IMG/VR virus record: IMGVR_UViG_2974673715_000001
Location: 64,001 to 128,000 of that record
DNA: 64,000 bases
Strand: one strand, 5' to 3'
Source: a virus
Taxonomy: Duplodnaviria > Caudoviricetes
The notes under the pieces are model-generated. The model did no database searches. It was not told the origin of the DNA and worked only from the letters and a program-made list of their open reading frames with translations. The position numbers were made by a program, and so were the translations under genes. Below, in pieces: positions 9,001-55,355 of the stretch. How positions within the stretch are numbered: the first letter of the stretch is position 1; the number at the start of each line of letters is the position of its first letter.

Positions 9001-12000
9001 GTTTTGCAGTCGCGGCTTCTGATGAATTTGGGTTTGGCACTGCAGCGTTTACAATCGAGTGTTGGATTAGACCAATTACTGTTGGTGCAGGAACAAGATC
9101 TATCTTTGATTTCAGAACTGCTGCAACTGAAGTTGCTCCTTACTTATATCTTGATGGTGCAAATCTAGAGTATTATGTTAATGGTTCCATAGTAATTCAA
9201 GGAACAGCAAACATAGTTGCAAATCAATGGACACACGTTGCTATTAGTAAATCAGGTTCTGTAACTAGAATGTTTGTTAATGGTGTTCAAGACGGTAGTA
9301 ATTACAGCGATAGCAATAACTACGGAACAAATAAACCAATTAGAATTGGTGATGATACTGCAGGTAATAATCACTTCATTGGATATATTGATGAGTTTAG
9401 AGTTTCTACAACTGGACGTTATACTGCAGCATTTACTGCACCTACAGGTATCTTCCAAGGTGATTCAAACACTGTATTACTCATTCATTTTGATGGTGTT
9501 GAAGGACAACAGCATACAGATGATTGGTCTGGAACTGTATCATTTACTAAGGATGAATATTTCAATAATGATGCAATTCTAGAAACTTCTAGAAAGACTG
9601 GTGCACCTGCAGGATTTGCGGGTAGATCCCACAGATACTATAACGCTGCAGATAATATCGAAGGTAACATCGACTTTATCAAGAAAGAAGTTGTATATCA
9701 AATGAGACAGAGATATCCAGAACTTGTTATTCTAGGAACTCGTTTCACTCCAACTAATGCAACATATGATGCTGTAACTGGTCTATTGTCAATGACAGTG
9801 ACTGGAAACACATTTACTAATGGTGGACAATTTACACCTCAGTCTGCATCATACAATCCTTCGACTGGTATATTGACTATCACTAAGATTAATCACGGTG
9901 TAACAAATGGTAAGAGAATCAATATTAAAGTTGGTGGTATCACATTTACATGTGCAGAAGATAGTAACGCTACAAATCATCCATATCCTCGTTCTACAGA
10001 TCCTGTTGCAGGTAAGTGGTTGACAGTTTCTAATGCGACTGCAGATACATTTACAGTTGATGTTGGAACCTCATCTAATACTACAACTCATGCTTTCGTA
10101 AGTGCCTTAACTAATGCAATTACTGTTGAGAAAGATAGACTTAAGATTTTAGATAATTCTTTGACGTTCACTTGTGCGATGGATGGTAATACTGCTAATA
10201 AAACTTATCCTCGTCCAACAGATCCTGCATCTAAAGATGTTGCTCTTCCAATCGTATCTTCCAGTTCTACCAATTTAACAGTTAATGTAGGACCTTCTCC
10301 TTTAGTTAATTTCCAACCAACTAACGCAACGTACGATCCTGCAACTGGTGCATTCGTCATGACGATTGCTAATCATACAATCAATGTTGGAACACAAATT
10401 AGATTAACTGCAAATTCATTTACATTTACTTGCACACAAGATGGTAACAGTGCACAGAAAACTTATCCTCGTGCAACTGCGGGCGATGGTCAACCTGATC
10501 CTGCATATAATACTGCTCTAGATGTAACTGCAGTCGGAACAACTACACAAGATATTAGTAGTGCAGCGTATGTTCCTACAACAGGTATTTTAACAGTCAA
10601 TACAAGTGGTAACCATGGATTATCTACTGGCAATAGAATTCAAATTGCTGATAATTCATTAACATTCACATGTGCTTATGATAGTAATGCTACAAACCAC
10701 ACATATCCAAGACAGACTGATCCTATCAGAGGTGAGTGGGTTGAAGTAACCGTTGTTGATGCTGATACATTTACTATTGATATTGGAACATCTAGTGATA
10801 CTTCTACACATTCATTTGTTTCTGCGACTGCAGGTGCACTAATTAAACAAACTGGAACTGTAACTATTAACGTTGGTGTTTCTGCTCAGGCAGATCAATA
10901 TGCTCATACTTTTGTATCTGCTGCAACAAACGCAGTTGTTACAGGTGGTAATTACTTACATACATTTGTTTCTGCTACAAATAATGCAGTCATTATTGAC
11001 GAAGGAATTAATTGTGAAGATGATATTCGTGATACATTGAATGCGATCATTCAAGATCTTCGTAATGGTTCTAACAATCATGTTTGGGATGCTGCATCTT
11101 ACTATGTTAATAGAACTGTTAACCCAGTTCAGATTGCACAGATTGAACCTGCTGTTAAAGAAACATTATTTGCTTATGAAAAAGTTGATGATATGCTTCA
11201 GTATGTCATTACTAATGCTCTTTGGCCAGTTCAAGGTGATCATGGTTTAACTCAATTTACTGACGTTTCAATTACTGATTCTTCTTACACTACATTGAAT
11301 CAGTTTACACCTACTAATGCAACTTATAATCCTGCTACTGGTGATATGGTATTGACTATTGGATCTCATTCAATGACCACATCATCAATAGTTAATATTG
11401 CAGTCGGTGGTATCACATTTACTTGTGACAAAGATGGCAATGATCGTCCTACTGCATATCCAAGAAAGACTGATCCTGCTGCTAAGGCAGTTCTAGCTGT
11501 CACTGCTGTTGGTGGTGGTAACACAACTATTACAGTTAACGTAGGTAAATCATCTGCAAGAGATCAATATACTCATACATTTGTATCTGCAGTAGCTAAT
11601 TCTGTCACTGAATTAAATTATACCACTGGTGACTGTGCTGATGTCTATTCAACTGTTGGTAACTTAATTAACATCATTACAGATACAATTACAAATGCTT
11701 CTGCATCATCACCTGTTGATCATTTGGCAAGTGTTACTAAAGTTGAACCTGCATATGAGTTCGTTGGTGGAACAGTTGATGGATATCTAGAAACAACTTT
11801 AGCAGTTGATTATCATAATGCAGGAACTGATTTATCATATACAAATCAGATTGGTCCTGATACGCAATATCGTTTCAGAGATGCTGCAAACTTAATCAGA
11901 CTTAATCGCACAGCAATCGTTGATAAAGCAGCGTACGATATGTTACAACGTTATCCTACGTTGGCACAAACAATGCCTAGAAACCAAGGTGGTGCAAGCA

Positions 12001-15000
12001 CTGACGGAACTATTCGTTGTAAGACTGACTTAGGTAATTTCTTAGATGCTATCGCAAATGATTTACAAGAAGGTGGTAATCTTGAAACTATAACAGGAAC
12101 TGGATTCTATCTCTTCCAAAATGGAGGACTACGTTATATTCGTCTTCAAGTATTCCAGTCAGTATATGCTCATGGAAGACTTGCTGAGTATATGAAACAA
12201 GCAGTTTTAGGAACCTTAACTGATGCCAATACTAACAGTATTGTTGTTGGAGACTGGGGAGTTACTGGTGCAGGTGTTTCTGGTTACTTTAATGCTGTTA
12301 CTGCTAGAATTGATGAACTCATTGCAACTATTAATAATATTATTGCTCCAACAGGTTCAGACTTTGAAATTGCTGCTGATAGATTATTCTTTAACAAGCA
12401 ATTTATAAAGGAAGAAATTAACGGTCTTGTTCTACAGTATCTTTCATATGTCTTAAACGGTGTCACCTATAATGCAGGTGCTTGGAATGATGAATTAGAT
12501 GTTGAAGATTTAATTGTTGCTCTTATTTCTGATTTACAGGCTGGTGGAACAGATAGCACAATTCAAGAAGCAAGCACTTATCTAACTGCTGCTCTTAATA
12601 TTCAAACTATTGACAATGTTCTCCCTGCAGCATTATATGCTATTGAACAAGTTGGAATCCTTGGTGAGTATGCGATTGAAAATGGATTATTTGCTCAAGC
12701 AGAAGCTGGAAGTGCAAACAGTTCTACTCAATATGCAGCGCAATATACTGATGAATCAGCATATAGAGATTCTATTTCAACTTCAGCAATCAATGATGTT
12801 GTATATGCATGGCGAGACTTAATTGAGATTGTTAAGGATATATTCTCACCTGGCGGAAAAGAAGCAAGATCTGCTGCTAAACAATTAGAGTATAATGAAA
12901 ATTATTACACTAATGAATTAAATAACGCAGTTACCAATCAATTTGGATCTGGTGCATGGTCTACTGATCAAGAAAACTTTATAGAAGGTATTGTTGGAGA
13001 CATTGTTCATGATCTTATTACAACTGATACTTACGATAAATCCACAGCATATACAATTACATTAAGTGCAAGTTCGGGTACGTTTGGTGTTGGAGAACTT
13101 GTTACTTCCAGTAATGGTGGTGAAGCAACTGTTCTTGAATACGACGATGTAAATAAAATCCTTTATGTCGGTGCATTTGGTGGAAGTGCATGGGTGGCAA
13201 CTAATACATTATCTGCTCCTAGCGGTGCTACAGGAACCATTGCATCTGGTGGCGTAAGTTCTGCATACAATTGGTATAATAATCCAACTAACGTTAAGAT
13301 TATTGATAGAGCAAGAAACCTTACATCTAATATTGAAGGTCTTGTTTCTACTACAAATATTTTCCCTGATCCCGAAAATCTTAATGCTACAGGTTGGACT
13401 GCATCAGAAACAACAACTTCAGTAGATGTTACTGCTGCTCCTGACGAAACTCAAACTGCTGATAAGTTAATTGCTTCAACAAATAATACTGAGCACTACA
13501 AGTATAAGAATTTCACTCTAAATTCCTTTGAGACTTTTGATAGTGATACTACTAAATTTGACTCTACTACTGAAACATTCGATACTGGTTCTGCAGGTGA
13601 TGCAACTACTCAAACATTTACATATTCAATCTTTGTTAAGGCAGCTGAGTATACTAAGACTCGTATATACCTAGCACTTGATGACTCTCTTGCAACACGT
13701 CAAAGAGCATTCTTTGATCTTGATTTATCAAATGGAACTAAGGGTTCTATCTTTACACCTGATGTTGCTATAACTGTAGATGCCTTTGGAGTAATTCCTC
13801 ATGGTAATGGATGGTATCGTGCTTATATTACAGCAACATTTGGATTTGGATTCTCTCAACTTCGCACACAAGTTTATACTAGAGGTTCTAACGGAGCACT
13901 AGTCCATGCAGGTAATGGATCTGATGGATTATTTGTTTGGGGTCATAAACTCAATAGTGGTGCCCTTGATCCTTATACTGCAGCATCTGGTACATTATTC
14001 TATTCAAACACTGATTATAATATCAAGACATTTGCTTTGGATAATCTTGAAGACTTTATGGGTAAGGCACTTGACAATACTTTAACATCTCCTTCACCTC
14101 TTGCATCTTTCTACAAGTTCTATGATGCTTCTCTTGCATCAGATTACAATAAATCTACTATTCAAAGATTTATTCGTTATCATCTAAATGTTATTAGAAA
14201 TCAGTTAGCACAGTCAACTTATTATACAACTATTACTAACAACAATGCGATCACTGTTCCTACAATCAAATATGGTAATCCTGAGGTTCCAATTGGACTT
14301 AGTGGTGGTGTTAAACCTGCTGATTACTTCTATGGTTTACTTAGTGACGCATCAGCCGAAGTTGAAACTGTTACAGAGAATACTGGTGAAGTAGTTCAAG
14401 TTTATAAGAGATTTAGAATTGACGGTAACATAACTGATGGTCCTTTCACAATGGGCGAGACTGTTGCTAAACAAGGTTCAAGTGGTGTTACAGGTGTTGT
14501 ATACGGTTTCTACGAAGATGCAAACTATAAGTATCTTGATGTTCGGGTAACCGCAGGAGTTTGGGCAGTTACTGACAATATTGTAGGTGCAGCAAACTCT
14601 ACTACTGCTCAAATTAGTGCTATTGAAGACCGTCTTCACATTATCGATCTTCAAGGATTATTTGAGAATAACATCCCATTTAAAGGATATACATCTGGAC
14701 AGACAGCACAACCAACAGGATTCTATCAAAATAATGCAGCGGTGACAGACAACACTGGAGGTACGCTAACAGTTGATACTGCAAGTCTAACTGGAACATT
14801 TGAAACCACTGCAGTGGTATATCCTCAGACCTCTAGGAAGTTTATTGATGTCAAGAAGATTGATGGTTTAGATGTTAAGGTTGGTGATTTAGTCGCTTCC
14901 ACAGGTAATATTCGTCTTGGTATTAATATTCTTAATAACTTGAATGTATTTACCGAAGGTAATAGACTGTATTCAATTGTTGCAGGTCAGCAGCAAACCA

Positions 15001-16250
15001 ATTATGTAGTTATTTCTGAGATAGATCTTGCTAATAATTACCTATACGTCATTCCTGTTGGCGGATTTACACCTTCAATTGGTGATGTTCTTGGTGATTA
15101 TGGAACAGGAACTGCATTACCTGTGGGACAAATTCAAGTTACAACTGTTGTTACAAATACAGGTCAGGGTGCTGCTAGAGTTCAAGATATTGAAAATATT
15201 GGTTTGAATAAGAGATTATATCTCTCTTCTGTTGTTGGTTCATTTACTGACAATGATGGTATTAAAGGTCCTGATAATTATGCTTCAGCGATTCTTAATG
15301 TTGAAGATGTTAAAGCTCGTGTCAAACGTTCCTTCAGAGGATTCGATGGAACACAAACATCATTCAAACTTACTACAGATAATGGAACTCAATATCTACC
15401 TGACCCTGCAGGACACATGCTCATCTTTGTTAATGGTATCCTACAACCACCTGGTGCAACTAATGCATACACAGCGTTCTCTGATACTATTCAGTTCACT
15501 GAAGCACCTGATTTGGGAGCATCCTTTACAGGATTCTACGTTGGTAAACTAAGACAACTTGATGATATTAGTTTCGAGTTTGATTCATTAAGTCAATCAT
15601 TCAACTTGAAACGTAATGATGTGTTCTATTCATTGACTCTAACTGATGGTGTTCAGTCAAGCACAATTAGACCTGAAAACAATATCATTGTTTCACTGAA
15701 TGGTGTGATTCAGGAACCTGGTATTGGTTTTGAGATTGTTGGTTCTAGAATCATCTTTACTGAAGTTCCTAGATTTGGTTCTACATTCGTTGCATTCTCT
15801 TATGTTGGTTCTGAGGCAGACGTTGATGCTGCTGAGGTTGTTCCTCCAATTGAACCAGGTGACTTTATTGACATTCAAGGTGAGACTGCAGATAGAGAAG
15901 TTGCTGTTATTGAATCATCAAACTCTCTAATTACATTTGATTATCTTGGATCTGTATTCGGACAGAAAGCTGTCGGAACTGCAGCTCTAACAACTGGATT
16001 TATTAAGAATGTTCAGGTAACTGGTGGTGGTTCAGGATACACTTCCAGACCTACTGTTCGTGTTGATTCTATCTCAGGTTTTGAGGGTAATATCCGTGCA
16101 CTAGTTGGTGTTGCGGGTGTTGAACTCAGTGCAACTGGTTCTGGATATCAAAATCCATCAGTTGCAGTTGAGACCACTGTCCCTGATGATTATGTCGCAC
16201 CTAATCTTGCAGATTATGGTGAAGAACTAATTGATCCAGAGATCCTATAA
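3..16250 (+). CDS. Giant virion structural / baseplate wedge-associated protein (gp7-like region), 5'-truncated by the window
   Basis: The frame is open from position 3 (GGGSGASATAIITKGVVSRVLIND...), so the start lies upstream. It contains many GxGYTSxPxVxIxGGGG baseplate repeats, a YHYH-family region (HSPIIGWAFDGNPIYGPYG...DLDQYNGRF), two LamG/concanavalin-like domains (WTIEF..., FTIECWIRP...WTHVAI...GYIDEFRVS), FTCxxD...YPRxTDP repeats and C-terminal LNGVIQxPG repeats. It lies upstream of gp8, as in cyanomyoviruses. Confidence 0.8.
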   Translation, partial: GGGSGASATAIITKGVVSRVLINDGGTGYTSQPTITIVGGGGTGATGTASVRGPIQDVTVSNGGASYTSNPTVTLSSGSGAVAQAIVQNGRIISIAIISAGSGYTTAPTIDIQGEGFGAVARATIDVDGENAGRVTGIEIVNRGIGYIQGTTLINLNSVGSGATFTANVFQWTYNLQETSTLDAAKGGVFEGFNNQYGGEYAHLSNPQRLRYLLGDNLFENNAGLVKEQETQLAHSPIIGWAFDGNPIYGPYGYSDPTDQNSAIAKLNTSYQLKAELVYNAVTNQNPVRTAGPLLSEESAGRFVEDYQYVFGQGDLDQYNGRFCKTPDYPDGRYCYFVTIDSTEDGNPLFPYVLGPSFNSVVDTWNLSADAVQQNIPTGVVRYRDPYENVDIDVERAPNASTNAITLENGDILLFEVEDEDRSGIIDQDETDDPDQVFEESPLQLFDYFPKVKLDSKVDIEVETITKFEDASVTGFTIENAGVSYQVNDRLVFDNTDTDGSGVSARVSRIKGESVLTYGFENTSGINYGLLKTTNPHNLVAGDTVFVDYSPVMDNTNKSYIVRQYKGIEEIQIDQTGSGYNTDIPPTIIIDGNGSDGSLEAVVTSVGSIDTVNILNSGSGYTSNPRVILSHPQVFKKADYYVSLIENENYASVNDVYVNDNKEVYICGKTHDISDNLVAFVAKLSATGVKEWEATLELTGGLDDAEFQKLYVDGKDIWVAGRNYPNSSLLNAYNPDIILVKYVEAENGLSATLNFQRAYAGISGSTRSDEITALKKFSDTRFVIGGYTNTNSANPYDAFIALVDTTGTFAIKRKLTSANSSEKITDIVVNGSDVYFSMEIASSVSATAVDVGFGKATIGTSAITIPYIKQISNTVYSFLNTSIAMDEFDEAYITATTRLKSDNTTTTGFWVGKFNTTGDVIYNKRYAVAGGSITAASKCVIDIFGDLNVAVSKIATTDSVRTAECIKIGYNGIIKSHTTQQFNLNNIEGITVNSLAVDNSGDVHLFGQTSWNRNEFIFPFTSGSNADTTGHYTLTSTSTNNSITYADNVAKIYGYNPAGSNSTWVNSHLKITSAQLGTKLNENWTIEFGLYKEASSSQTLSQTQQTLVSIGDAEDATGGLWLYYDVSSGKLELVVTNNTTKLNSAGSALQSTLTTMFADNTWQYIGLKKEGNQFTAYVNGIQAFTGSVSNTALNGKDLLFGQITGRDGTAGTIRKNEQGQYFIDHLRLRNRAITPSVPSDVTAFPTTGAFAFAYTWVDSGWFTTNLSKYDYIDYIGWGLKIDKNADAARIGTQTVQTNTQVGFVRTSVSAVTGVDLTVTNTGFALGDAGFQNLDFDDSATTMNAGTESLTYKQDIWSSRTATVPSPGSRKLKVTAIVRDRYYFKVTPTSKIDNIQELTINQSFNFTVGTKLKLVNATSGAFINSGYIISTDNVNNKIFLSVNNNGWSDDLNQGQLVTEQFSEQSTYGIVGPIPADVNEIEGYNFAQVNNTTPGTFDIDLDKYNLDGTYNAAGGQNLDSFAKFKPHSDIDYAIRIDEVSPSGSPFIVGSVVTITSSDISFNSAYSTAQITNLTGVLKITVIANLTKILQVTAVTNSDQVYVITGTNHYLSTGSMIYVDGNPTQTIGSTTYDEYDGSFAVSQIVSAREFVYKLPSAALTSPATTAANVSIYVKSPVLKMYYGHQYLFDVSHSSMSGGNLSFSKDPLNKLEYSFNSIERVGTPGLTGAGNPTPTVKLKVDEGIVTNISYYFDPSRTGADSPVSDGSYLDVTDSPYKGTFSVQSVQGATITRGADIIRFPLLNEPEAAADVNQASYTTSSVKAVGSIGAIRIVNPGGFYTRLPVVTGIQSTRQIERVAINAPGTEYAVGTYTGVPIGGDGEGGFVEITVADGTDANGVTIPGQIQSVVVTSPGKNYTTATIDVEAITGILGSGLTGSGAELEVVIPASGTGASIFTQGDKVGKIKKLKNNNFGYDYPHDYTLRPEITFPINAQLTSTSILDSITVTDPGSGYSQAPAVVITGGGGTGAVAEATIKNGRLDLIIVKDPGAGYSSTPAVALRSSFNYVVNLDLGLLQFAFPHGIANGSAVTLNVVDTGEGADFPLAAGAIGRLNGTTTYYAITGSANSLEPDQLKLAITASNANLGDAISYVNAGSGRQQLLTESFGGAATANVITSTFLEGELVYQGDSLENSTAQGYVSTNNGWQIGPRVLKIVDYTGDFIEGQRVTGVISKSSGTISDLNIAKGVLEIGSLTKTTGQFIDDVGKPSEIIEKIQDSYYYQDFSYAIKSAVSIGEWKDILIKNVHPASFKVFGELNLSDYGFVPNKETDFQLTKSVELARDAIVPNIQSFALVEPVYSEFNNTEILFRQKRLTSSENILTSVVQRIDDISTLFDGERIAFPLTVGGTNIVANANQLMIVLNGVVQNPGTSFNLQGDSIVFNEPPQPPASIKYVNVTIQNIPTKKISFDNIGGIFPNPGNEMVGTASGNRLTVTSVVGNDVFGFFTQGTTFTPSELVTVGATGFASNVAASNGVTDVQNIGLFTFGEKVTDFQGDTARVESINLQKGQETPLAQLRYTIGPSTTSFEVVAYKTDNSVADAPVADGTFTTGQNYQFGSEIFLLNSITQGSQSTTFGVTRAQSGTTAVSQQEDNPVYGTQISVNNQLTLSKTTGTYQSTPGLYDIQLNEVIIGAQSGVVARVTATSTYQDPVTQEFISQVNISEGSSFFGLLFNRITSQTYPNVVLDDISKSQVRIVDFTDNQTDYNTKFPSNEEINNYVIPYDNASGTLQNETIRNYKLEYGNNDGEFATGEGAVVRKLTYRDTVGTGLFVPGQIIRTRDTKAEVIGANQARKTVYVGKVGRSLRNGGDYHTFTFNNAYLNATNQKFGDACLGLSPGTEAHTFVSGVADSITAGGGATGTFTAATGTTYNGLTGDLVIEIGNHSLTTSNTVLIADNSIGFTCAQDGNTSTKTYPRSTDPASGSARNITAVTSTTITVNVGAVPIDESFAVAASDEFGFGTAAFTIECWIRPITVGAGTRSIFDFRTAATEVAPYLYLDGANLEYYVNGSIVIQGTANIVANQWTHVAISKSGSVTRMFVNGVQDGSNYSDSNNYGTNKPIRIGDDTAGNNHFIGYIDEFRVSTTGRYTAAFTAPTGIFQGDSNTVLLIHFDGVEGQQHTDDWSGTVSFTKDEYFNNDAILETSRKTGAPAGFAGRSHRYYNAADNIEGNIDFIKKEVVYQMRQRYPELVILGTRFTPTNATYDAVTGLLSMTVTGNTFTNGGQFTPQSASYNPSTGILTITKINHGVTNGKRINIKVGGITFTCAEDSNATNHPYPRSTDPVAGKWLTVSNATADTFTVDVGTSSNTTTHAFVSALTNAITVEKDRLKILDNSLTFTCAMDGNTANKTYPRPTDPASKDVALPIVSSSSTNLTVNVGPSPLVNFQPTNATYDPATGAFVMTIANHTINVGTQIRLTANSFTFTCTQDGNSAQKTYPRATAGDGQPDPAYNTALDVTAVGTTTQDISSAAYVPTTGILTVNTSGNHGLSTGNRIQIADNSLTFTCAYDSNATNHTYPRQTDPIRGEWVEVTVVDADTFTIDIGTSSDTSTHSFVSATAGALIKQTGTVTINVGVSAQADQYAHTFVSAATNAVVTGGNYLHTFVSATNNAVIIDEGINCEDDIRDTLNAIIQDLRNGSNNHVWDAASYYVNRTVNPVQIAQIEPAVKETLFAYEKVDDMLQYVITNALWPVQGDHGLTQFTDVSITDSSYTTLNQFTPTNATYNPATGDMVLTIGSHSMTTSSIVNIAVGGITFTCDKDGNDRPTAYPRKTDPAAKAVLAVTAVGGGNTTITVNVGKSSARDQYTHTFVSAVANSVTELNYTTGDCADVYSTVGNLINIITDTITNASASSPVDHLASVTKVEPAYEFVGGTVDGYLETTLAVDYHNAGTDLSYTNQIGPDTQYRFRDAANLIRLNRTAIVDKAAYDMLQRYPTLAQTMPRNQGGASTDGTIRCKTDLGNFLDAIANDLQEGGNLETITGTGFYLFQNGGLRYIRLQVFQSVYAHGRLAEYMKQAVLGTLTDANTNSIVVGDWGVTGAGVSGYFNAVTARIDELIATINNIIAPTGSDFEIAADRLFFNKQFIKEEINGLVLQYLSYVLNGVTYNAGAWNDELDVEDLIVALISDLQAGGTDSTIQEASTYLTAALNIQTIDNVLPAALYAIEQVGILGEYAIENGLFAQAEAGSANSSTQYAAQYTDESAYRDSISTSAINDVVYAWRDLIEIVKDIFSPGGKEARSAAKQLEYNENYYTNELNNAVTNQFGSGAWSTDQENFIEGIVGDIVHDLITTDTYDKSTAYTITLSASSGTFGVGELVTSSNGGEATVLEYDDVNKILYVGAFGGSAWVATNTLSAPSGATGTIASGGVSSAYNWYNNPTNVKIIDRARNLTSNIEGLVSTTNIFPDPENLNATGWTASETTTSVDVTAAPDETQTADKLIASTNNTEHYKYKNFTLNSFETFDSDTTKFDSTTETFDTGSAGDATTQTFTYSIFVKAAEYTKTRIYLALDDSLATRQRAFFDLDLSNGTKGSIFTPDVAITVDAFGVIPHGNGWYRAYITATFGFGFSQLRTQVYTRGSNGALVHAGNGSDGLFVWGHKLNSGALDPYTAASGTLFYSNTDYNIKTFALDNLEDFMGKALDNTLTSPSPLASFYKFYDASLASDYNKSTIQRFIRYHLNVIRNQLAQSTYYTTITNNNAITVPTIKYGNPEVPIGLSGGVKPADYFYGLLSDASAEVETVTENTGEVVQVYKRFRIDGNITDGPFTMGETVAKQGSSGVTGVVYGFYEDANYKYLDVRVTAGVWAVTDNIVGAANSTTAQISAIEDRLHIIDLQGLFENNIPFKGYTSGQTAQPTGFYQNNAAVTDNTGGTLTVDTASLTGTFETTAVVYPQTSRKFIDVKKIDGLDVKVGDLVASTGNIRLGINILNNLNVFTEGNRLYSIVAGQQQTNYVVISEIDLANNYLYVIPVGGFTPSIGDVLGDYGTGTALPVGQIQVTTVVTNTGQGAARVQDIENIGLNKRLYLSSVVGSFTDNDGIKGPDNYASAILNVEDVKARVKRSFRGFDGTQTSFKLTTDNGTQYLPDPAGHMLIFVNGILQPPGATNAYTAFSDTIQFTEAPDLGASFTGFYVGKLRQLDDISFEFDSLSQSFNLKRNDVFYSLTLTDGVQSSTIRPENNIIVSLNGVIQEPGIGFEIVGSRIIFTEVPRFGSTFVAFSYVGSEADVDAAEVVPPIEPGDFIDIQGETADREVAVIESSNSLITFDYLGSVFGQKAVGTAALTTGFIKNVQVTGGGSGYTSRPTVRVDSISGFEGNIRALVGVAGVELSATGSGYQNPSVAVETTVPDDYVAPNLADYGEELIDPEIL

Positions 16251-40458: not shown

Positions 40459-40890
40459 ATGTCAAATCCTTTCGATGGTCTCAACGATGCTTTTGGAACT
40501 GAACCTACAGAACTTCAAAAGCATGTTGAAAAAGTAAAACCTACTCTGAAAAAAACAGAGACTGAAGATGTGAAGCAAGACTACGAGTTATCTCGTGCTG
40601 CTTTACATAGTTTAGTGATGAAAGGACAAGAAGCAGTGGATGGTATATTGGAAGTAGCACAAGCATCAGATCATCCTCGTGCGTATGAAGTTGCTGCAAC
40701 AACGATTAAGAACGTAGCAGATACTGCTGATAAACTAATTGATCTTCAGAAAAAGATGAAAGAGTTAGATGCTGAGGATAAAAAGAATGCACCTTCTACA
40801 GTAAACAATACTATGTTTGTTGGTAGCACTGCAGAGTTACAGAAAATGTTAAAGCAGCAAAAAGAGATAAATAAAAAGGACGAGAAATAA
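40459..40890 (+). CDS. gp16: Terminase small subunit gp16
   Basis: DYELSR..L, HPRAYEVAA and NNTMFVGSTAELQKML. Confidence 0.92.
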   Translation: MSNPFDGLNDAFGTEPTELQKHVEKVKPTLKKTETEDVKQDYELSRAALHSLVMKGQEAVDGILEVAQASDHPRAYEVAATTIKNVADTADKLIDLQKKMKELDAEDKKNAPSTVNNTMFVGSTAELQKMLKQQKEINKKDEK

Positions 40891-40901
40891 CAACACACGA
40901 C

Positions 40902-41438
40902 ATGTCAGTATTAAATGTTCTTAGCACTAATACAGTTGCAGCAGGTGCAACTGAATATCAAGTAATTCAAACAGGATATTACAGAGTTGGATCTACTGCA
41001 GGTGCAGCAACTGTATCACTTAATGGTGGTCCTGCAATCACACTTGTTCAGAATGAATTCATTCTTCTCAAAGGTGGAAAACCTGGTCAAGCAAGAATTG
41101 TAAAAGCAGTATCTGATTCTACTGGTGACTATATCCTAGGTCAGCATATTCATTCTACAGGTGATGCACATCCATTCTCATCTGGTGATTTTATCGCAGT
41201 TGAAGATGATAGCACATCTCCTGCTATTGATAGTAACTTCCTTTCTGCAGGAACTGCAGGTAAAAAGATTACTGCTGTCACAGGAAACACAATCGCTACT
41301 GATATTGATTCATCAGGTGCATCAGCAGATTACACTTTTGCCTTCTCAGGTCCTCAAGCAGTTGTTAAAAGATGCATTAAAATCGTTGCTGCTACAAGTG
41401 CAGTGATTATTGAAGAGATTCAAGTCGTTGGTGGTTAA
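40902..41438 (+). CDS. Hypothetical (probable virion) protein
   Basis: 178-aa beta-rich ORF preceded by a GATAAATA late-promoter-like sequence at 40866-40873. Confidence 0.7.
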   Translation: MSVLNVLSTNTVAAGATEYQVIQTGYYRVGSTAGAATVSLNGGPAITLVQNEFILLKGGKPGQARIVKAVSDSTGDYILGQHIHSTGDAHPFSSGDFIAVEDDSTSPAIDSNFLSAGTAGKKITAVTGNTIATDIDSSGASADYTFAFSGPQAVVKRCIKIVAATSAVIIEEIQVVGG

Positions 41439-41439
41439 G

Positions 41440-42102
41440 ATGCCCGCTGTAAATCAAGAGGCAGAGAGAATAGTTAAAGGGATGAAGAAGAATCGTCATC
41501 GCTTTAAGAAACTCTATGGAGATCGAGATAAAGAAGTTATGTACGCTACTGCTAATAAGTTAGCACAAAAAGAACAATTGAAAGTTATGTACTATCAAGA
41601 TTTCATTAAACTAGTCGAAGGTAATCCTACTACAAGGATGCTATCGAAAGCAAAGTCAAAGACTACTGGAAACATTTCTGCTGATCGTGGAACTGACGAA
41701 AAGAAGAATAGGGAAAGTAGAAAGTCTCTTGAAAAAGATCTTAAGAAGAAAGGTATAGGTTATAAAAAGGGTGTAGGGGAGTATAAATATTCCTCAGGTG
41801 AAGGAACAGGACGTGAGGTTTCATACCAAACTACTCCTGCAAAAGGAATGTCTAAGAGACGTTTCGGTAAAGTTATGCGTCGTCTAGGACGTAAGCATGG
41901 TCAAGAATCAGTTATCACTAAGAAGGCAGGTAAACCTGCTAGACTACATGATACTGAGTCTAAAAAACCATCTAAGTCTATGAACTTAGGTAAGGCAAAA
42001 CCAGGTAAAAATCCTGGTGGTTTCGGAGAAACTTCTGGTACTAAAGTCAGAAAAGGTAAACTAGGTAAAACTAACAAACCCGCGATGCACTATGGCAACT
42101 AA
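41440..42102 (+). CDS. Lys/Arg-rich hypothetical protein, candidate capsid internal protein
   Basis: The ATG at 41440 (MPAVNQEAER...) directly follows the upstream stop. The protein is very basic and has an internal MYYQDFIKLVE segment. Confidence 0.7.
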   Translation: MPAVNQEAERIVKGMKKNRHRFKKLYGDRDKEVMYATANKLAQKEQLKVMYYQDFIKLVEGNPTTRMLSKAKSKTTGNISADRGTDEKKNRESRKSLEKDLKKKGIGYKKGVGEYKYSSGEGTGREVSYQTTPAKGMSKRRFGKVMRRLGRKHGQESVITKKAGKPARLHDTESKKPSKSMNLGKAKPGKNPGGFGETSGTKVRKGKLGKTNKPAMHYGN

Positions 42103-43189
42103 TGAAATTATCGAAAAGAACAAAAGTGGTGATAGTTCTTTGCACGACTGGTTTTCTAAGAGTAAGTCTTCTGATGGGAAGCCTGGTTGGGTTCAGCTCG
42201 GTGGTAAATACGCAGGTAAACCCTGTGCCAAACAACCTGGACAAACAACCAAACCCAAGTGTGGTTCCAGTAAGATGAAAAGAAACCTAAATAAAAAAGA
42301 GGAAGATGCTGCCTTTCGTCGCAAAAACAAGCAAGATCCTAATCCAAACAGAAAAGGAAAAGCAATCAACGTGAAAACAGAATCTACACAAATACACGAA
42401 GGCGAAAAAGACGCATGTTACCATAAGGTAAAATCTCGCTATTCAGTTTGGCCAAGTGCTTATGCAAGCGGTGCACTTGTCAAATGCCGAAAAGTTGGTG
42501 CAAAAAATTGGGGGAACAAAAGTAAGAAAGAAGAATTTGATATGAAGGTAAAAGGATTCCAAAATTTTCAATCAGAATGTTGGAAGACTCATAAAAAAGT
42601 TGGTATGAAAATGAAGGGTGGTAAGTTGGTAAATGATTGTCGTCCTAAAAATGAAGCAAAGGAATACACAGGACCTGACAAAGCAGACAGAAAACTTATC
42701 AAGAAAATGGATAACCCTAGTTATGCTAAAAAGTTAGCAGACTATGAAAAGAACATGGATCCTAAGAAGCGTCAAGCACTTAAGGATAAAGCGACTAAGG
42801 GTATGAAGTTTACTCATGAAGAAACAACCAACGAAGCAAAGAAATGTTGGCCAGGTTATGAGAAAAAAGGAACCCAAAAACTATTCGGCAAAACGTACAA
42901 CCGCTGTGTAAAAAAGGAAGACTTGGAGTATGTCAGAGAAAAAGCAGCAGCATGGACTAGGAAAGCAGGAAAAAACCAATCAGGCGGACTTAACGAAAAA
43001 GGCAGAAAAAGTTACGAACGCGAAAATCCTGGATCTGACCTTAAAGCACCTAGCAAAAAAGTTGGAAACCCCCGCAGGGCATCCTTCTGCGCTAGAATGA
43101 AAGGAATGAAAAAGAAACTAACATCTAAGAAAACTGCATCAGATCCTGATTCAAGAATTAACAAAAGCTTGCGTGCTTGGAATTGTTGA
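42092..43189 (+). CDS. Lys-rich modular hypothetical protein (C-terminal DUF6321-like module; CWxxxxxxG...C repeats)
   Basis: Modules: SLHDWF...GWV...KPC...PKC; DACYHKVKSRYSVWPSAYASGALVKCRK; two CW(K/P)xxxxxG..K..GK..NxC units; AWTRKAGKN..GGLNEKGRKSY...RRASFCARM...RINKSLRAWNC. Confidence 0.75.
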   Translation: MATNEIIEKNKSGDSSLHDWFSKSKSSDGKPGWVQLGGKYAGKPCAKQPGQTTKPKCGSSKMKRNLNKKEEDAAFRRKNKQDPNPNRKGKAINVKTESTQIHEGEKDACYHKVKSRYSVWPSAYASGALVKCRKVGAKNWGNKSKKEEFDMKVKGFQNFQSECWKTHKKVGMKMKGGKLVNDCRPKNEAKEYTGPDKADRKLIKKMDNPSYAKKLADYEKNMDPKKRQALKDKATKGMKFTHEETTNEAKKCWPGYEKKGTQKLFGKTYNRCVKKEDLEYVREKAAAWTRKAGKNQSGGLNEKGRKSYERENPGSDLKAPSKKVGNPRRASFCARMKGMKKKLTSKKTASDPDSRINKSLRAWNC

Positions 43190-43220: not shown

Positions 43221-43445
43221 ATGAAAATCTGTCCGAAGTGTAGTGCTACATGGATCGGGGAACAGTTATATTGGTCTACAGGAAAAGAGGGTTGCCCTCA
43301 TGATCTTGCAGGACTAGTATGTAATAATCATGGAGATGAGACTTGTATTAATCCATGTAAAGGATCCACTAGTGGTCAAACATGGGAATATCGTCGTGGA
43401 ATGATTGATGGTTTGACGGAGGGGTATGGTAAAGATAGTTCGTAA
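43221..43445 (+). CDS. Cys-rich hypothetical protein
   Basis: 74-aa ORF with CPKC...C...LAGLVCN...CINPC. Confidence 0.7.
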   Translation: MKICPKCSATWIGEQLYWSTGKEGCPHDLAGLVCNNHGDETCINPCKGSTSGQTWEYRRGMIDGLTEGYGKDSS

Positions 43446-46746: not shown

Positions 46747-46973
46747 GAAGAGAAATGTTGGAAGCTCTCAAGGCACTTGCCATTGGCAACATCAAGAAAG
46801 CAAAGATGAACGTTGAGGTTTACCTTAAGAATCCTGTTGGAATTGGTGAACACCCAGATGTTCTTGGTGCTATTCAAGAACAAATTGATTTGATTGCGAA
46901 AGAAGAGGAACGTTTGGAAGTAATCGAAAAGTATTTTGAAGTAGGAATGGATCTTTATGGTGGATCTGAATGA
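46743..46973 (+). CDS. Conserved phage hypothetical protein (NPVGIGEHPD motif)
   Basis: 76-aa ORF coupled to pcyA and gp17 by ATGA overlaps. Confidence 0.75.
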   Translation: MRREMLEALKALAIGNIKKAKMNVEVYLKNPVGIGEHPDVLGAIQEQIDLIAKEEERLEVIEKYFEVGMDLYGGSE

Positions 46974-48613
46974 GTGATCAGTATCTCGGCAACCCAAATC
47001 TAAAAAAAGTTAACACATCAATTGACTTCAAACCAGAAGAAGTTGCTGAGGTATTGAAGTGTCAAGATGATCCCATATATTTTATCAAAAATTATATCAA
47101 GATCGTTTCTCTAGATGAGGGTCTAGTTCCATTTAACATGTATCATTTCCAAGAGGAAATGGTATCTAAGTTTCATGATCATAGATTCAATATCGCTAAA
47201 CTACCACGACAGAGTGGTAAGTCTACCATTGTTACTGCATACTTACTTTGGTATGTGTTATTCAATCCAAATGTCAACGTAGCAATCCTTGCAAACAAAG
47301 CAGCAACTGCTAGGGAGATGCTTCAAAGATTACAATTAAGTTATGAAAACCTCCCAAACTGGATGCAACAAGGAATCCTCCAATGGAACAGAGGTTCTCT
47401 GGAACTTGAAAACGGCAGTAAAATCATGGCTGCTTCTACTTCCGCTTCTGCTGTCAGGGGTATGTCATTTAACGTTATATTTCTGGATGAATTCGCGTTC
47501 ATTCCGAATCATATCGCTGATCAGTTTTTTAGTTCTGTTTATCCAACTATTTCCTCAGGTAAGTCTACGAAAGTTATTATCATATCTACTCCTCACGGAA
47601 TGAATATGTTCTACAAACTCTGGCATGATGCAGAGCGTGGAACGAATGAATATGTGCCTACGGAAGTTCACTGGTCGGAAGTGCCAGGTAGAGATGATGT
47701 ATGGAAAGAGCAAACTATTAAGAACACATCAGAATCTCAGTTTCGTGTTGAGTTTGAGTGTGAGTTCTTAGGATCTGTTGATACATTGATTGCTCCTAGT
47801 AAGTTGAGAATCATGCCATATCATGATCCAATTACATCTAATCGTGGACTTGCAGTATATGAACAAGTAATTCCAGAACATAATTATATTATCACTGTTG
47901 ACGTATCGAGAGGTGTTGGTAATGATTACTCAGCATTTTGTGTAATAGATACCACAACTATTCCTTATAAGATGGTTGCCAGATATAAGAACAATGAAAT
48001 TAAACCTATCGTTCTACCAAATATTATCGTAGACATAGCAAAGAATTATAATAACGCATACATCTTATGTGAAGTAAATGATATTGGTGGACAGGTAGCA
48101 GATATTATTCAGTTTGATTTGGAGTATGAGAATTTGTTGATGGCTGCAATGAGAGGTCGTGCAGGTCAACAACTAGGTCAAGGTTTTTCTGGTAAGAAAA
48201 CACAACTTGGTGTTAAGATGTCTACAGCAACAAAACAAGTTGGATGTTCTAATCTCAAAGCATTAATTGAAGAAGATAAATTGCTTATAAATGATTATGA
48301 CACGATTGCGGAATTAACAACGTTCATTGCGAAAGGTCAAACATTCCAAGCGGAAGAAGGTTGTAATGACGACCTTGCTATGTGTTTAGTAATTTTTGGT
48401 TGGATGGCAATGCAACCATACTTTAAAGAGATGCACGATAATGACGTACGTCAACGCATCTATGAACAACAGAAAGATATGATTGAACAAGACATGGCAC
48501 CATTTGGTTTTGTAACTGACGGAATGGAAGATGATTATTTTGCAGACGCACAGGGCGATGTGTGGAAAGTCGCGGAATACGGGGATAAATCCTACATGTG
48601 GGAGTTTAGGTAA
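46970..48613 (+). CDS. gp17: Terminase large subunit gp17
   Basis: YLGNPNLKK, Walker A PRQSGKST, Walker B IFLDEFAF, STPHGMN, and the nuclease motifs DVSRG / NDDLAM. Confidence 0.97.
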   Translation: MSDQYLGNPNLKKVNTSIDFKPEEVAEVLKCQDDPIYFIKNYIKIVSLDEGLVPFNMYHFQEEMVSKFHDHRFNIAKLPRQSGKSTIVTAYLLWYVLFNPNVNVAILANKAATAREMLQRLQLSYENLPNWMQQGILQWNRGSLELENGSKIMAASTSASAVRGMSFNVIFLDEFAFIPNHIADQFFSSVYPTISSGKSTKVIIISTPHGMNMFYKLWHDAERGTNEYVPTEVHWSEVPGRDDVWKEQTIKNTSESQFRVEFECEFLGSVDTLIAPSKLRIMPYHDPITSNRGLAVYEQVIPEHNYIITVDVSRGVGNDYSAFCVIDTTTIPYKMVARYKNNEIKPIVLPNIIVDIAKNYNNAYILCEVNDIGGQVADIIQFDLEYENLLMAAMRGRAGQQLGQGFSGKKTQLGVKMSTATKQVGCSNLKALIEEDKLLINDYDTIAELTTFIAKGQTFQAEEGCNDDLAMCLVIFGWMAMQPYFKEMHDNDVRQRIYEQQKDMIEQDMAPFGFVTDGMEDDYFADAQGDVWKVAEYGDKSYMWEFR

Positions 48614-53281: not shown

Positions 53282-53632
53282 ATGCCTACTGAAATTGCAA
53301 AACAAATAGTTCAACAAATCTTCGGAGACGACAAAGCGAAAGCAGTTGACTCCGTGAATGATGCATTGGCTGCAACTGCATATGATGCCATTCAAGCAAG
53401 AAAGGTTGAGTTCGCAAAAAGTATGGGGTTTGAACTAGATGATACCGCACAGGATGCTGCAGATGAAATTGCAGATAACCTACCTGACGGAACTGACGAA
53501 CCTGAAACTGTTGAAGTTGATGGTCGCAAACCTGAAGATCCACCAGAAGAACCAGAAGCACCCGTTGCTGACGGAACACCTTCTTCTGTAGAAGAACCAA
53601 TCGAGGAACCAACCGATGAGACTAATAGCTGA
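53282..53632 (+). CDS. Acidic protein in the gp67/gp68 (prohead core) position
   Basis: 116 aa with a Glu/Asp/Pro-rich tail, between gp20 and gp21. Confidence 0.65.
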   Translation: MPTEIAKQIVQQIFGDDKAKAVDSVNDALAATAYDAIQARKVEFAKSMGFELDDTAQDAADEIADNLPDGTDEPETVEVDGRKPEDPPEEPEAPVADGTPSSVEEPIEEPTDETNS

Positions 53633-54260
53633 AGAAATTACAAACGTTGATTTTATCTGCGAAGATAAAGAAGGCAAGAAAAATTACTTCATTGAAGGTG
53701 TCTTTCTACAAGCGGAATTAAAAAACCGCAACAATAGAATGTATCCCTTGAAGACTTTATCCAAAGAAGTCGCTAAATATGATGAGAACTACATTCAAAA
53801 AGGGCGTGCCCTTGGAGAATTAGGTCATCCTGATGGTCCGTCAATTAACCTTGACCGCGTTTCCCATAAGATTCTTTCTCTAAAGGAAGATGGAAACAAC
53901 TTCATAGGTAGAGCAAAACTGCTAGACACACCTATGGGTGGAATCGCAAAGAACCTCTTAGATGAGGGTGTCAAACTAGGTGTTTCATCTAGAGGCATGG
54001 GTTCAATTCGTAAAGAAGAGAACTGTAATGTTGTTATGGACGACTTTATGCTCGCAACTGCAGCAGATATAGTCGCCGATCCTTCCGCTCCTGATGCTTT
54101 TGTCAATGGAATTATGGAAGGAAAGGAGTGGGTTTGGGACAATGGAGTCCTAAAAGAAGCTGCTGTGGCAGAAATTAAACAAGAAATTGATCAAGCAACT
54201 CTAATTAATCTCCAAGAACGTAAGGTTTCCGCGTTTGAGGCGTTTTTAAAGAGTTTGTGA
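53616..54260 (+). CDS. gp21: Prohead core protease gp21
   Basis: IEGVFLQAE.KNRN.RMYP, ALGELGHP, GVSSRGMGS and DIVADPSAPDAFV. Confidence 0.96.
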   Translation: MRLIAEEITNVDFICEDKEGKKNYFIEGVFLQAELKNRNNRMYPLKTLSKEVAKYDENYIQKGRALGELGHPDGPSINLDRVSHKILSLKEDGNNFIGRAKLLDTPMGGIAKNLLDEGVKLGVSSRGMGSIRKEENCNVVMDDFMLATAADIVADPSAPDAFVNGIMEGKEWVWDNGVLKEAAVAEIKQEIDQATLINLQERKVSAFEAFLKSL

Positions 54261-54308: not shown

Positions 54309-55355
54309 ATGGCTGAGACCCTCGATAAAGAGTTAGATAACATGGAGCAAGTGGACGAAGGCTCTGATCCTATCACCAAGAACGCAAAACCTGGTGAGAA
54401 GATGGACACTTCCAAAGCAGGAAGTCCAAAAAAAGTCGTCAACGTAGAAGGACCTGTAGGTGCTTCAATGGAAGGCGCAAAAGGAACTAAGAACGCAGGT
54501 AGTTCTGCTGCAGGTGCAGTGAACTATGAGGGTTCTAAGTCTCTGAGCACAAAACCAAGTGCTGCATCCGCAAAACAAGAGGAGGTAGAAACGGAAGATG
54601 GCGAAAAAGAAGAAATCGCTGAAACCAAGTACGACTTTACTCAGGATGTTGACGCTCTTGTCGCAGGTGAAGAACTATCAGAAGAGTTCCGAGTAAAAGC
54701 AGCTACTATTTTTGAAGCAGCTGTTACTGCCAAAGTTAACGACGAAGTTAAAGCGTTGCAAGAAGCGTTTGAAACTACGCTGACTGAAGAAGTCGAAAAA
54801 GTTCAAACAGAATTGGCCGAGAAGGTTGACGATTACTTGTCTTATGCTGCCGAGCAATGGATGAAGGAAAACTCATTGCAAATCGAGCATGGCATCAAGA
54901 CTGAGATGGCAGAATCGTTCTTCAAAGGTCTAAAAGGTCTCTTCTTAGAGCACAACTTTACAGTGCCTGAGGAGAAGTTCAACCTGCTAGATGGAATGGC
55001 AGGTGAGCTTGATGATATGGAAGCTAAACTCAACGAGCAAATCGACACTAATGTTGCTTTGAACAAGCGCATTGGTGAGTTTGTAAAAATGGAAATTGTG
55101 AACGACGCAGCTACTGGACTAGCAGAAACCCAAAAGGAGAAGTTAGCATCATTAGCAGAGGGTGTTGAGTTTGAAAATGAAGAAGATTTTCGCAAGAAGG
55201 TCGAAACTATCAAGGAATCCTACTTTACTAAGAAGGCTGAAGTCGCTACAAAAGCAACTGAACCCACTGAAGAAAGTTCCGCTCCTTTGGTAGAAGATAC
55301 TAACAGCAGCACAATGTCGAAGTACGTTGATGCACTCGCTCGTTGGTCCAAATAA
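54309..55355 (+). CDS. gp22: Prohead core scaffolding protein gp22
   Basis: LSEEFRVKAATIFEAAV, VDDYLSY..EQWMKEN and KVETIKESYF; synteny. Confidence 0.92.
   Translation: MAETLDKELDNMEQVDEGSDPITKNAKPGEKMDTSKAGSPKKVVNVEGPVGASMEGAKGTKNAGSSAAGAVNYEGSKSLSTKPSAASAKQEEVETEDGEKEEIAETKYDFTQDVDALVAGEELSEEFRVKAATIFEAAVTAKVNDEVKALQEAFETTLTEEVEKVQTELAEKVDDYLSYAAEQWMKENSLQIEHGIKTEMAESFFKGLKGLFLEHNFTVPEEKFNLLDGMAGELDDMEAKLNEQIDTNVALNKRIGEFVKMEIVNDAATGLAETQKEKLASLAEGVEFENEEDFRKKVETIKESYFTKKAEVATKATEPTEESSAPLVEDTNSSTMSKYVDALARWSK

Follow-up and report, generated by a model that had tools for sequence, protein, structure and literature searches.

We analysed a 64,000-nucleotide stretch of viral DNA (the window; positions 64,001 to 128,000 of IMG/VR record IMGVR_UViG_2974673715_000001), which belongs to a T4-like cyanomyovirus closest to P-RSM4, and in it two overlapping open reading frames, ORF1 and ORF2, situated between the genes for the small and the large terminase. 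On balance we favour a reading in which both genes encode cargo of the phage head: leaders resembling the capsid-targeting sequence (CTS) of phage T4 would dock the proteins on the gp22 scaffold, the gp21 prohead protease would cut them, and the products would be injected. ORF2 is a mosaic of small basic modules with relatives in the virions of some phages, and very probably is a virion protein itself. ORF1 retains the residues of an S-adenosylmethionine (SAM) lyase behind a leader of the same kind, and such leaders go together with T4-like phages.

ORF2 (T4-GC119 in the scheme of Sullivan et al. 2010, where ORF1 is T4-GC110) is made up of five basic modules that each hold a Cys pair and of one helical stretch free of Cys, with a DUF6321 domain last. 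Its ten Cys fall into five pairs (C45/C57, C109/C132, C163/C183, C252/C272 and C333/C365), and 8 of the 10 are invariant or nearly invariant among 52 aligned homologues, many of which lack the M3 module that holds C163/C183. Lys makes up about 18% of the residues in the ORF2 family, and Lys and Arg together about 25% of the ORF1 and ORF2 proteins. An earlier interpretation made from the DNA letters alone (the sequence-only reading) had described the 365-aa ORF as a chain of Lys/Arg-rich Cys-pair modules, and a comparison of 120 homologues bears this out. An insertion of at least 12 aa follows residues 96-102 in 61 of the 120, residues 161-247 are missing in 26 and residues 188-242 in 44, with homologue lengths ranging from 290 to 589 aa. 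Among the 16 cyanophages compared by Sullivan et al. 2010, the T4-GC119 gene measures 276-2985 bp in 15, and S-PM2 is without it. The sole constant part of the family is the C-terminal DUF6321 domain; DUF6321 clusters are also the only neighbours of ORF2 in the protein atlas.

The AlphaFold2 model of ORF2, built with 52 sequences, has a mean predicted local distance difference test score (pLDDT) of 45.3, with 250 of 365 residues below 50, and therefore does not describe one folded domain. Both CW...C modules are modelled as beta-hairpins (best region residues 250-280, pLDDT about 75) and the linkers as helices. Folding as one domain, part of the outcome named beforehand as telling against a polyprotein, is not what the model displays, and the homologue comparisons lead us to consider the modules real units. 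A PDB sequence search with ORF2 returned nothing useful, NCBIfam gave no match for ORF1, ORF2, gp6 of cyanophage S-CREM2 or the gene upstream of ORF1, and we found no paper on DUF6321 in a literature search that did not cover subscription journals.

The T4 internal proteins IPII and IPIII start with MKTYQEFIAE followed by Ala, and this stretch is the T4 CTS. According to the review account, targeting depends on its residues 4 and 7 and processing on residues 8 and 10, Asp at position 10 blocks processing, and gp21 cuts after L/I-x-E. CTS-like segments had been claimed for both ORFs, and both are present with the aromatic-x-x-Phe pair, at aa 50-60 of ORF1 and aa 151-162 of ORF2; the L/I-x-E site is found in ORF1 (L-V-E60↓G, the arrow marking the candidate cut) and not in the internal leader of ORF2 (F-Q-S-E, with Gln at P3). 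Stand-alone relatives begin with such leaders. Those of the ORF1 family start MKTYQEFMLE.., MRTFQEFQQLCE↓GG, MKTFQEFMVE.. or MKLDE↓GG, almost all of the 31 stand-alone members inspected have hydrophobic-x-Glu ahead of the point where conservation sets in, and the T4-GC110 gene of P-SSM2 starts exactly at the ORF1-type leader. Likewise, 120 short DUF6321 proteins yielded 106 distinct N-termini, 60 of which fit M-x-x-[FY]-x-x-[FLIMK]; a Glu lies within four small residues of the domain in 103 of the 106, with a hydrophobic P3 in 63. The linker MKVKGFQNFQSE of ORF2 also matches a gene start elsewhere, because the N-terminus of a short relative, P0444 (MKTFNQFQAE↓CWKTHKK, from a short contig, its start being a gene call), aligns with ORF2 residues 153-194 at 76% identity. 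In S-SZBM1, the internal leader preceding the ORF1-type core of SSZBM1_194 reads ..ITYREFIAE↓GN (T4, KTYQEFIAE↓), and SSZBM1_192 starts MKTFKQYITE↓A. Taken as sequence similarity, the resemblance of these leaders to the CTS is not a coincidence.

The Glu residues of the linkers were then examined across the family. Module cores were defined by motifs and the unique upstream contexts were collected from all stored proteins. A Glu occurs within six residues upstream of the module cores in nearly all contexts, and over eight module types the nearest upstream acidic residue is always Glu (211 contexts) and never Asp, Glu being 60% of acidic residues overall; these contexts are related sequences and not independent, which tempers the count, and the counts for M2 and M6 are confounded by acidic residues inside the chosen motifs (Glu in M2; Asp in M6, the ninth type). 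At the boundaries of these eight module types Glu is conserved, as the sequence-only reading had expected. A hydrophobic P3 accompanies the junction Glu in 33/36 contexts of M1, 15/15 of M6, 17/18 of M10, 31/32 of the SAM-lyase core (M9) and 75/114 of DUF6321 (M5); by module the proportion is 58-100%, against a background of 112/535 (21%) for all Glu contexts in the family, so that the pattern goes beyond chance. In ORF2 itself the five linker Glu residues pointed out previously are all there (E8, E103, E162, E248 and E283).

DUF6321 was detected in 498 phage records, small podoviruses included, and these offer the contrast to which we give most weight. In seven podovirus genes (P-SCSP1b, MEP402, S-CBP4, HTVC204P, EXVC031P, Lederberg and S-TIP37), which are the non-myovirus matches in the tblastn listings, the leader is absent from 7 of 7 DUF6321 proteins, and they start directly in the domain. 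The next gene after DUF6321 in S-CBP4 and S-TIP37 is a KRGLYANIHAKRKR module, again without leader (2/2), whereas in T4-like phages this module is preceded by MKDFREFRELAE↓A. Since the leader is missing in the podoviruses examined and present in T4-like phages, it goes with the T4-type head and not with the cargo. The DUF6321 ORF of S-CBP4 (NC_025464, 2483..2734, + strand; 83 aa, GTG start) is unannotated and lies between hli and the KRGLYANIHAKRKR-type gene.

We also asked how well the leader singles out virion proteins in S-CREM2, scanning 329 first-ATG ORFs of at least 60 aa on both strands with a pattern of leader followed by hydrophobic-x-Glu. Four matched (ORF6, ORF136, ORF154 and ORF155) and 4 of 4 are in the virion proteome of this phage. 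The hypergeometric chance of this is about 0.003 (52 virion proteins; 221 annotated features taken as the protein number), a value diminished by the fact that the pattern was composed after ORF6 and ORF136 had been seen, so that only two of the matches are a fair test. When a strict leader pattern was applied to the genome of the window phage no ORF matched, and a looser one picked out the cytidylyltransferase and mostly noise. This cytidylyltransferase, encoded outside the window (153240..154400 of the phage's own genome, + strand), has a 10-aa T4-like leader, MKKFNAFLIE↓A; its family, T4-GC190, is represented in virions of S-SM1 (25 peptides), S-CREM2 and S-SZBM1. Also outside the window (155025..156014 of that genome, + strand) a second Lys-rich module chain of 329 aa contains an internal ..LLTFNQFHE↓G leader and a YGKMSIRN module that is present in some T4-GC119 proteins too. 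In S-CREM2 the two genes after the cytidylyltransferase (ORF155 and ORF156) encode virion proteins.

Published proteomes place relatives of both genes in virions. Table S8 of Sullivan et al. 2010, read without a header row and with its columns assigned from the legend and the gene-size columns, records T4-GC119 with 13 peptides from purified S-SM1 virions. The S-SM1 protein, SSM1_115, contains in order an ORF1-type N-module, a CxxC module, modules 1, 6, 2 and 4, and DUF6321; what it has in common with the window proteins is the N-module and modules 1, 2, 4 and 5. Table 3 of a 2023 paper on S-CREM2 (PMC10665884) lists 52 virion proteins, among them ORF6 (gp6), named 'SAM hydrolase' (19 unique peptides), the cytidylyltransferase ORF154, ORF136 (8 unique peptides) and ORF137 (4 unique peptides, 4.1% coverage). 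The genes of ORF136 and ORF137 have the same setting as ORF1 and ORF2, between terS and terL; ORF136 starts MQTFSMFFSE↓D and ORF137 has DUF6321 at its C-terminus. The virion presence predicted by the sequence-only reading is thus borne out for ORF2-family relatives in S-SM1 and S-CREM2, and not in Syn9 and S-SZBM1, where none was detected. T4-GC110 occurs in only 5 of 16 genomes, and the three phages with a 2010 proteome (Sullivan et al. 2010) all lack it, so its absence from Table S8 says nothing. We lean, somewhat cautiously, towards ORF1 being packaged. The virion status of T4-GC119 and of a cyanophage SAM hydrolase is already in print, and the authors of the S-CREM2 paper already suggested that gp6 enters with the DNA (PMC10665884). 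In the same literature search we did not find the cyanophage leader code, its repetition in polyproteins or the module grammar.

ORF1 is of a different nature. Counted with ORF2 as a string of Cys-paired mini-modules in the sequence-only reading, it has no Cys, and in 17 homologues residues 50-220 are conserved as one enzyme-like block, the first 46 residues being a variable N-module; that part of the description has to be given up. A search with residues 50-220 against 1.84 billion cluster representatives gave 125 relatives. Of 29 that were scanned, 26 are shorter and distant, and 25 of these pass the cut-off of Pfam PF23780 (S-adenosylmethionine lyase), the remaining one scoring 21.3 bits; precomputed PF23780 matches exist for 108 of the 120 best ORF1 homologues. 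A profile of 26 diverse family members run against PDB sequences retrieved T3 SAMase first (7ock, E 0.0068) and Svi3-3 second (6zm9, E 0.016), and in the 26-member alignment a Glu and a Gln do not vary at all and a Gly hardly does. Gly56, Glu69 and Gln104 are reported as the only residues strictly conserved among active SAMases, with Tyr58 and Glu105 helping to enclose the substrate (Guo et al. 2021, PMC7877911); the ORF1 equivalents of Gly56, Tyr58, Glu69, Gln104 and Glu105 are G113, Y115, E126, Q155 and E156. S-CREM2 ORF6 scores 70 bits on PF23780 and shows 35% identity to the ORF1 core over 138 aa (E 7e-13, hhalign probability 100). SAM lyases have a ferredoxin-like core fold, and on this point the evidence for ORF1 is weaker: its model has a beta-alpha-beta-beta-alpha arrangement for aa 77-152 (pLDDT 52-84). 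Enzymes of the SAM lyase family are trimers with active sites at the interfaces and convert SAM into 5'-methylthioadenosine and homoserine lactone.

Some results tell against an enzyme. ORF1 itself reaches 27.4 bits on PF23780 (aa 79-185), just under the cut-off of 28, and three long, close relatives among the 29 scanned had no Pfam match. The fold model is weak as a whole (mean pLDDT 54.6), and Foldseek found no match for it at E 0.001 or better, ranking ribosomal protein S6 on top (E 0.023) and the SAM lyases 6znb and 6zm9 seventh (E 0.057) and eighth. A PDB sequence search with ORF1 or a profile of its close homologues gave nothing useful, SAM lyases being reached only by the broad family profile. 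Weighing both sides, we assign ORF1 to the SAM-lyase family (PF23780) by transitive homology, and consider it somewhat more likely than not that it is an active SAM lyase. T4 IPIII, tried as a homologue of the ORF1 core, was rejected (hhalign probability 0.3). Internal initiation at Met50 was considered, and no clear ribosome-binding site is visible upstream of it. A stand-alone, leader-bearing member of the family is encoded by IMG/VR contig L065 of a marine T4-like myovirus (10010..10495, + strand), among replication genes and directly after a large peptidase gene, and not in a terminase island.

We propose the following mechanism, for which the window phage encodes a Peptidase_S77 gp21 and a scaffold of T4 type (Table 1). 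ORF2 would be a head-internal, very basic, largely disordered train of Cys-pair modules always ending in DUF6321, its inter-module linkers being descendants of T4-type capsid-targeting leaders (aromatic-x-x-Phe, then hydrophobic-x-Glu). Through these leaders the precursor would attach to the gp22 scaffold core, gp21 would cut after linker Glu residues, and the released small basic peptides would stay on the packaged DNA and enter the host with it. In ORF1 the same address system would be set on an enzyme: a cut at L-V-E60↓G61 would free the SAM lyase, and the injected enzyme may destroy host S-adenosylmethionine before SAM-dependent restriction or bacteriophage exclusion (BREX) acts. We are inclined to think that gp21 cuts at least one internal linker of ORF2; that it cuts the protein into all its modules appears doubtful.

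Several observations weigh against this mechanism. No gp21 cleavage product has been observed for any family member. As far as the accounts of T4 at hand describe it, the CTS was tested only at the N-terminus, and the leaders of ORF1 and ORF2 are both internal, while the N-terminus of ORF2, MATNEIIE, has no aromatic pair. A hydrophobic P3 is found at 15/25 junctions of M3 and 15/26 of M4, and those of M8 and M11 do not fit the six-residue rule. In ORF2 only E8, E103 and E283 have a hydrophobic P3 (3/5), so the linkers listed by the sequence-only reading hold as gp21-type sites for these three and not for E162 (F-Q-S-E) and E248 (T-T-N-E). Syn9 carries the T4-GC119 gene and gave no virion peptides for it (Sullivan et al. 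2010, Table S8). The 30 proteins in Table 1 of the S-SZBM1 proteome (PMC9146016) include neither SSZBM1_194, a 707-aa chain ending in an ORF1-type core, nor the DUF6321 protein SSZBM1_192; for ORF1's own subfamily, this negative is the sole proteome result.

The proteins might be packaged and not dissected, a minority possibility that we take seriously. ORF2 would then be one long disordered basic internal protein, losing its first residues at most, and the Glu linkers and CTS-like stretches would be fusion relics that now act only as helical spacers. Such a fusion history is plausible, since podoviruses encode the same modules one by one and T4-like phages have them in short genes with leaders, and the two ORF2 linkers lacking a hydrophobic P3, the modelling of the linkers as helices and the single cut, beside the CTS, that is described for T4 internal proteins all agree with it. 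A relic spacer, however, should tolerate Asp and drift, yet Glu was kept in 211 of 211 junction contexts, and the hydrophobic P3 stands about three- to five-fold over background in eight module types, also in the distant S-CREM2 and S-SZBM1.

It is improbable that these are virion proteins outside the head interior (on the capsid surface, in the neck or tail) or co-purifying ones, with the leader acting as a tag for assembly in general or for a chaperone, independent of gp21 and gp22. The genes do lie among neck, terminase and tail genes, the DUF6321 gene of the podovirus P-SCSP1b lies between capsid and tail-tube genes, and detection is inconsistent between proteomes; but the leader hardly differs from the T4 CTS, which was defined by experiment, and phages that have no T4-type core lack it, the strong basicity and modelled disorder of the proteins are what one would expect of head-internal DNA-bound proteins, and enzymes with the same leader (SAM lyase, cytidylyltransferase) occur in virions. 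Least probable of all are cytoplasmic non-virion proteins, with ORF1 an ordinary expressed SAM lyase like that of T3, which is described as acting as an expressed early protein (PMC8406200), and ORF2 a DNA-binding or host-takeover protein made during infection: homologues missing from S-SZBM1 and Syn9 virions and the stand-alone relative among replication genes in L065 would suit this, but relatives of both genes were found in virions, the genes lie in the late structural block between terS and terL, and the leader tracks T4-like virion cargo.

The head-cargo reading can be compared with known systems. T4 internal proteins are likewise small, highly basic head cargo with a leader of about 10 aa, aromatic at position 4, Phe at 7 and hydrophobic-x-Glu at 8-10, and they are described as gp21-cut and injected, IPI* being an anti-restriction factor. 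Unlike in T4, leaders are also found here within long chains, where one protein holds several, and ahead of an enzyme domain. The mature parts show no relationship to IPIII (the hhalign comparison above), the usual leader length is 12 aa (..L-x-E), and P3 is Gln or Thr in some linkers. Precursors cut repeatedly after Glu in the prohead by a T4-gp21-type protease are described for T4 gp22, gp67 and gp68 and for the inner-body or ejection proteins of phiKZ, 201phi2-1 and SPN3US. The T4 core fragments mostly leave the head, whereas here the predicted products, basic and folded mini-modules, should remain on the DNA, and the motif of the giant phages (phiKZ, 201phi2-1, SPN3US) is S/A-x-E, in proteins with no sequence relationship to ORF2. 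Adenovirus core-protein precursors, too, are basic and DNA-condensing and are matured by the virion protease inside the capsid; virus, protease and sequences are unrelated, and the analogy is one of mechanism only.

With T3 SAMase and Svi3-3, ORF1 has in common the PF23780 homology and the Gly, Tyr, Glu and Gln-Glu residues. It differs from T3 SAMase in its 46-aa N-module, internal leader and conserved basic tail, the T3 enzyme having no leader and being made after infection. S-CREM2 gp6 is a virion homologue of ORF1, and its leader goes unmentioned in the description that the paper gives of it (PMC10665884). ORF2 is a member of T4-GC119/DUF6321, catalogued only as a virion protein or a domain of unknown function.

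T4-like cyanophages are among the most abundant viruses of the ocean, and little is known of what their heads contain besides DNA. Should the leader code prove right, the sequence alone would be enough to predict the head cargo of thousands of marine phages, and the presence of SAM lyase and cytidylyltransferase in virion proteomes would be explained. The polyprotein, if real, would be a route for packing many small injected proteins, and a SAM lyase that is injected would be active ahead of all phage gene expression, unlike in the T3 paradigm. Foreign proteins might also be loaded into cyanophage heads by means of such a code, as done in T4. A wider picture, speculative and in our view unlikely, is that T4-like marine phages share an address code (CTS-like leader plus Glu cut site) loading a combinatorial train of mini-effectors and enzymes. 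SAM lyase, cytidylyltransferase and dozens of interchangeable basic Cys-pair modules would be its cargo, the terS-terL island would be a hypervariable arsenal with cassette shuffling, and gp21 would free each module for injection against a different host defence or process.

The features of the locus are collected in Table 1. The late structural block runs gp13, gp14, gp15, gp16, DUF7243 gene, ORF1, ORF2, small genes plus PTOX, gp17, gp18, gp20, gp21, gp22, gp23.

Table 1. Features of the ORF1-ORF2 locus and of the presumed partners, in window coordinates.
Feature	Position	Strand	Description
gp16	40459..40890		Small terminase
DUF7243 gene	40902..41438	+	Between gp16 and ORF1; 252.8 bits; T4-GC403
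ORF1	41440..42102	+	220 aa, isoelectric point (pI) 10.35; T4-GC110; N-module, CTS-like leader, SAM-lyase-family domain, basic tail
N-module	41440..41577	+	aa 1-46, ..RFKKLYGDRDKEVMYATANKLAQK..; also heads many T4-GC119 proteins including S-SM1 SSM1_115
ORF1 internal CTS-like leader	41587..41619	+	aa 50-60, MYYQDFIKLVE, then Gly; L-V-E is the candidate gp21 site
SAM-lyase-family core	41620..41994	+	Pfam match aa 79-185; G113, Y115, E126, Q155 and E156 align with Svi3-3 SAM-binding residues
ORF1 C-terminal tail	41995..42099	+	aa 186-220, Lys/Gly-rich; conserved together with the core, modelled as disordered
ORF2	42092..43189	+	365 aa, pI 9.98; T4-GC119 virion-protein family
ORF2 N-terminal octapeptide	42092..42115	+	MATNEIIE; I-I-E precedes module 1
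Module 1	42116..42400	+	aa 9-103, KNKSGDSSLHDWF..C45..C57.., end ..TQIHE; main insertion hot spot aa 96-102
Module 2	42401..42541	+	aa 104-150, ..DACYHKVKSRYSVWPSAYASGALVKCRK..; 43 aa identical to part of the virion-detected S-SM1 protein
ORF2 internal CTS-like linker	42542..42577	+	aa 151-162, MKVKGFQNFQSE
Module 3	42578..42655	+	aa 163-188, CWKTHKK..NDC, modelled as beta-hairpin
Cys-free segment	42656..42835	+	aa 189-248, predicted helical, end ..TTNE; absent from 44/120 homologues
Module 4	42836..42940	+	aa 249-283, AKKCWPGYEKKG..NRC, beta-hairpin, end ..YVRE; best-modelled part
Module 5	42941..43186	+	Constant C-terminal domain; Pfam DUF6321 match aa 293-363, 81.6 bits; C333/C365
gp17	46970..48613		Large terminase
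gp21	53616..54260	+	Prohead protease, presumed processing enzyme; Peptidase_S77, 109.9 bits
gp22	54309..55355	+	Scaffold, presumed docking partner of CTS-like leaders; T4_CASP, 273.2 bits

The nearest deposited genome by DNA is S-SSM5, with 82% identity over 75% of a 3.1-kb query, and no deposited record reached 80% coverage of that query. The ORF1 protein is almost identical to PRSM4_119, whose sequence is printed in the supplement of Sullivan et al. 2010, and the size of ORF2 equals the 1098 bp listed there for T4-GC119 of P-RSM4. The ATG of ORF2 lies within the last codons of ORF1, giving an 11-nt overlap (42092..42102) in the +1 frame, and this arrangement suggests translational coupling of two cargo genes. 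A frameshift fusion of the two frames was considered and dropped because T4-GC119 homologues carry the N-module directly on their chains, without the enzyme.

The window holds no more copies of the T4 late-promoter consensus TATAAATA than chance gives: five, all on the + strand, against 5.6 expected. Four of them stand just upstream of late genes (16246, 48625, 53254 and 54263) and the fifth lies inside ORF1 (41782..41789, + strand), 310 nt before ORF2. In gp23 of the window phage, by analogy with T4, an L-T-E site would stand where the T4 propeptide would end.

Other genes of the window deserve mention. The DUF7243/T4-GC403 protein is the most peptide-rich protein without known function in S-SM1 virions (60 peptides), and in S-SZBM1 an 87-aa protein encoded at the same position has the third-highest exponentially modified protein abundance index in Table 1 of its proteome (PMC9146016); the DUF7243 protein is probably an abundant capsid or neck component. 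Directly 3' of ORF2, a 74-aa protein with eight Cys (43221..43445, + strand; phrog_484) could be another small cargo-like or metal-binding protein. Finally, one open frame of more than 5400 aa (3..16250, + strand) runs off the left end of the window, and its size is comparable to that of T4-GC969, virion structural genes of 18-19 kb that a few cyanophages are listed as having.

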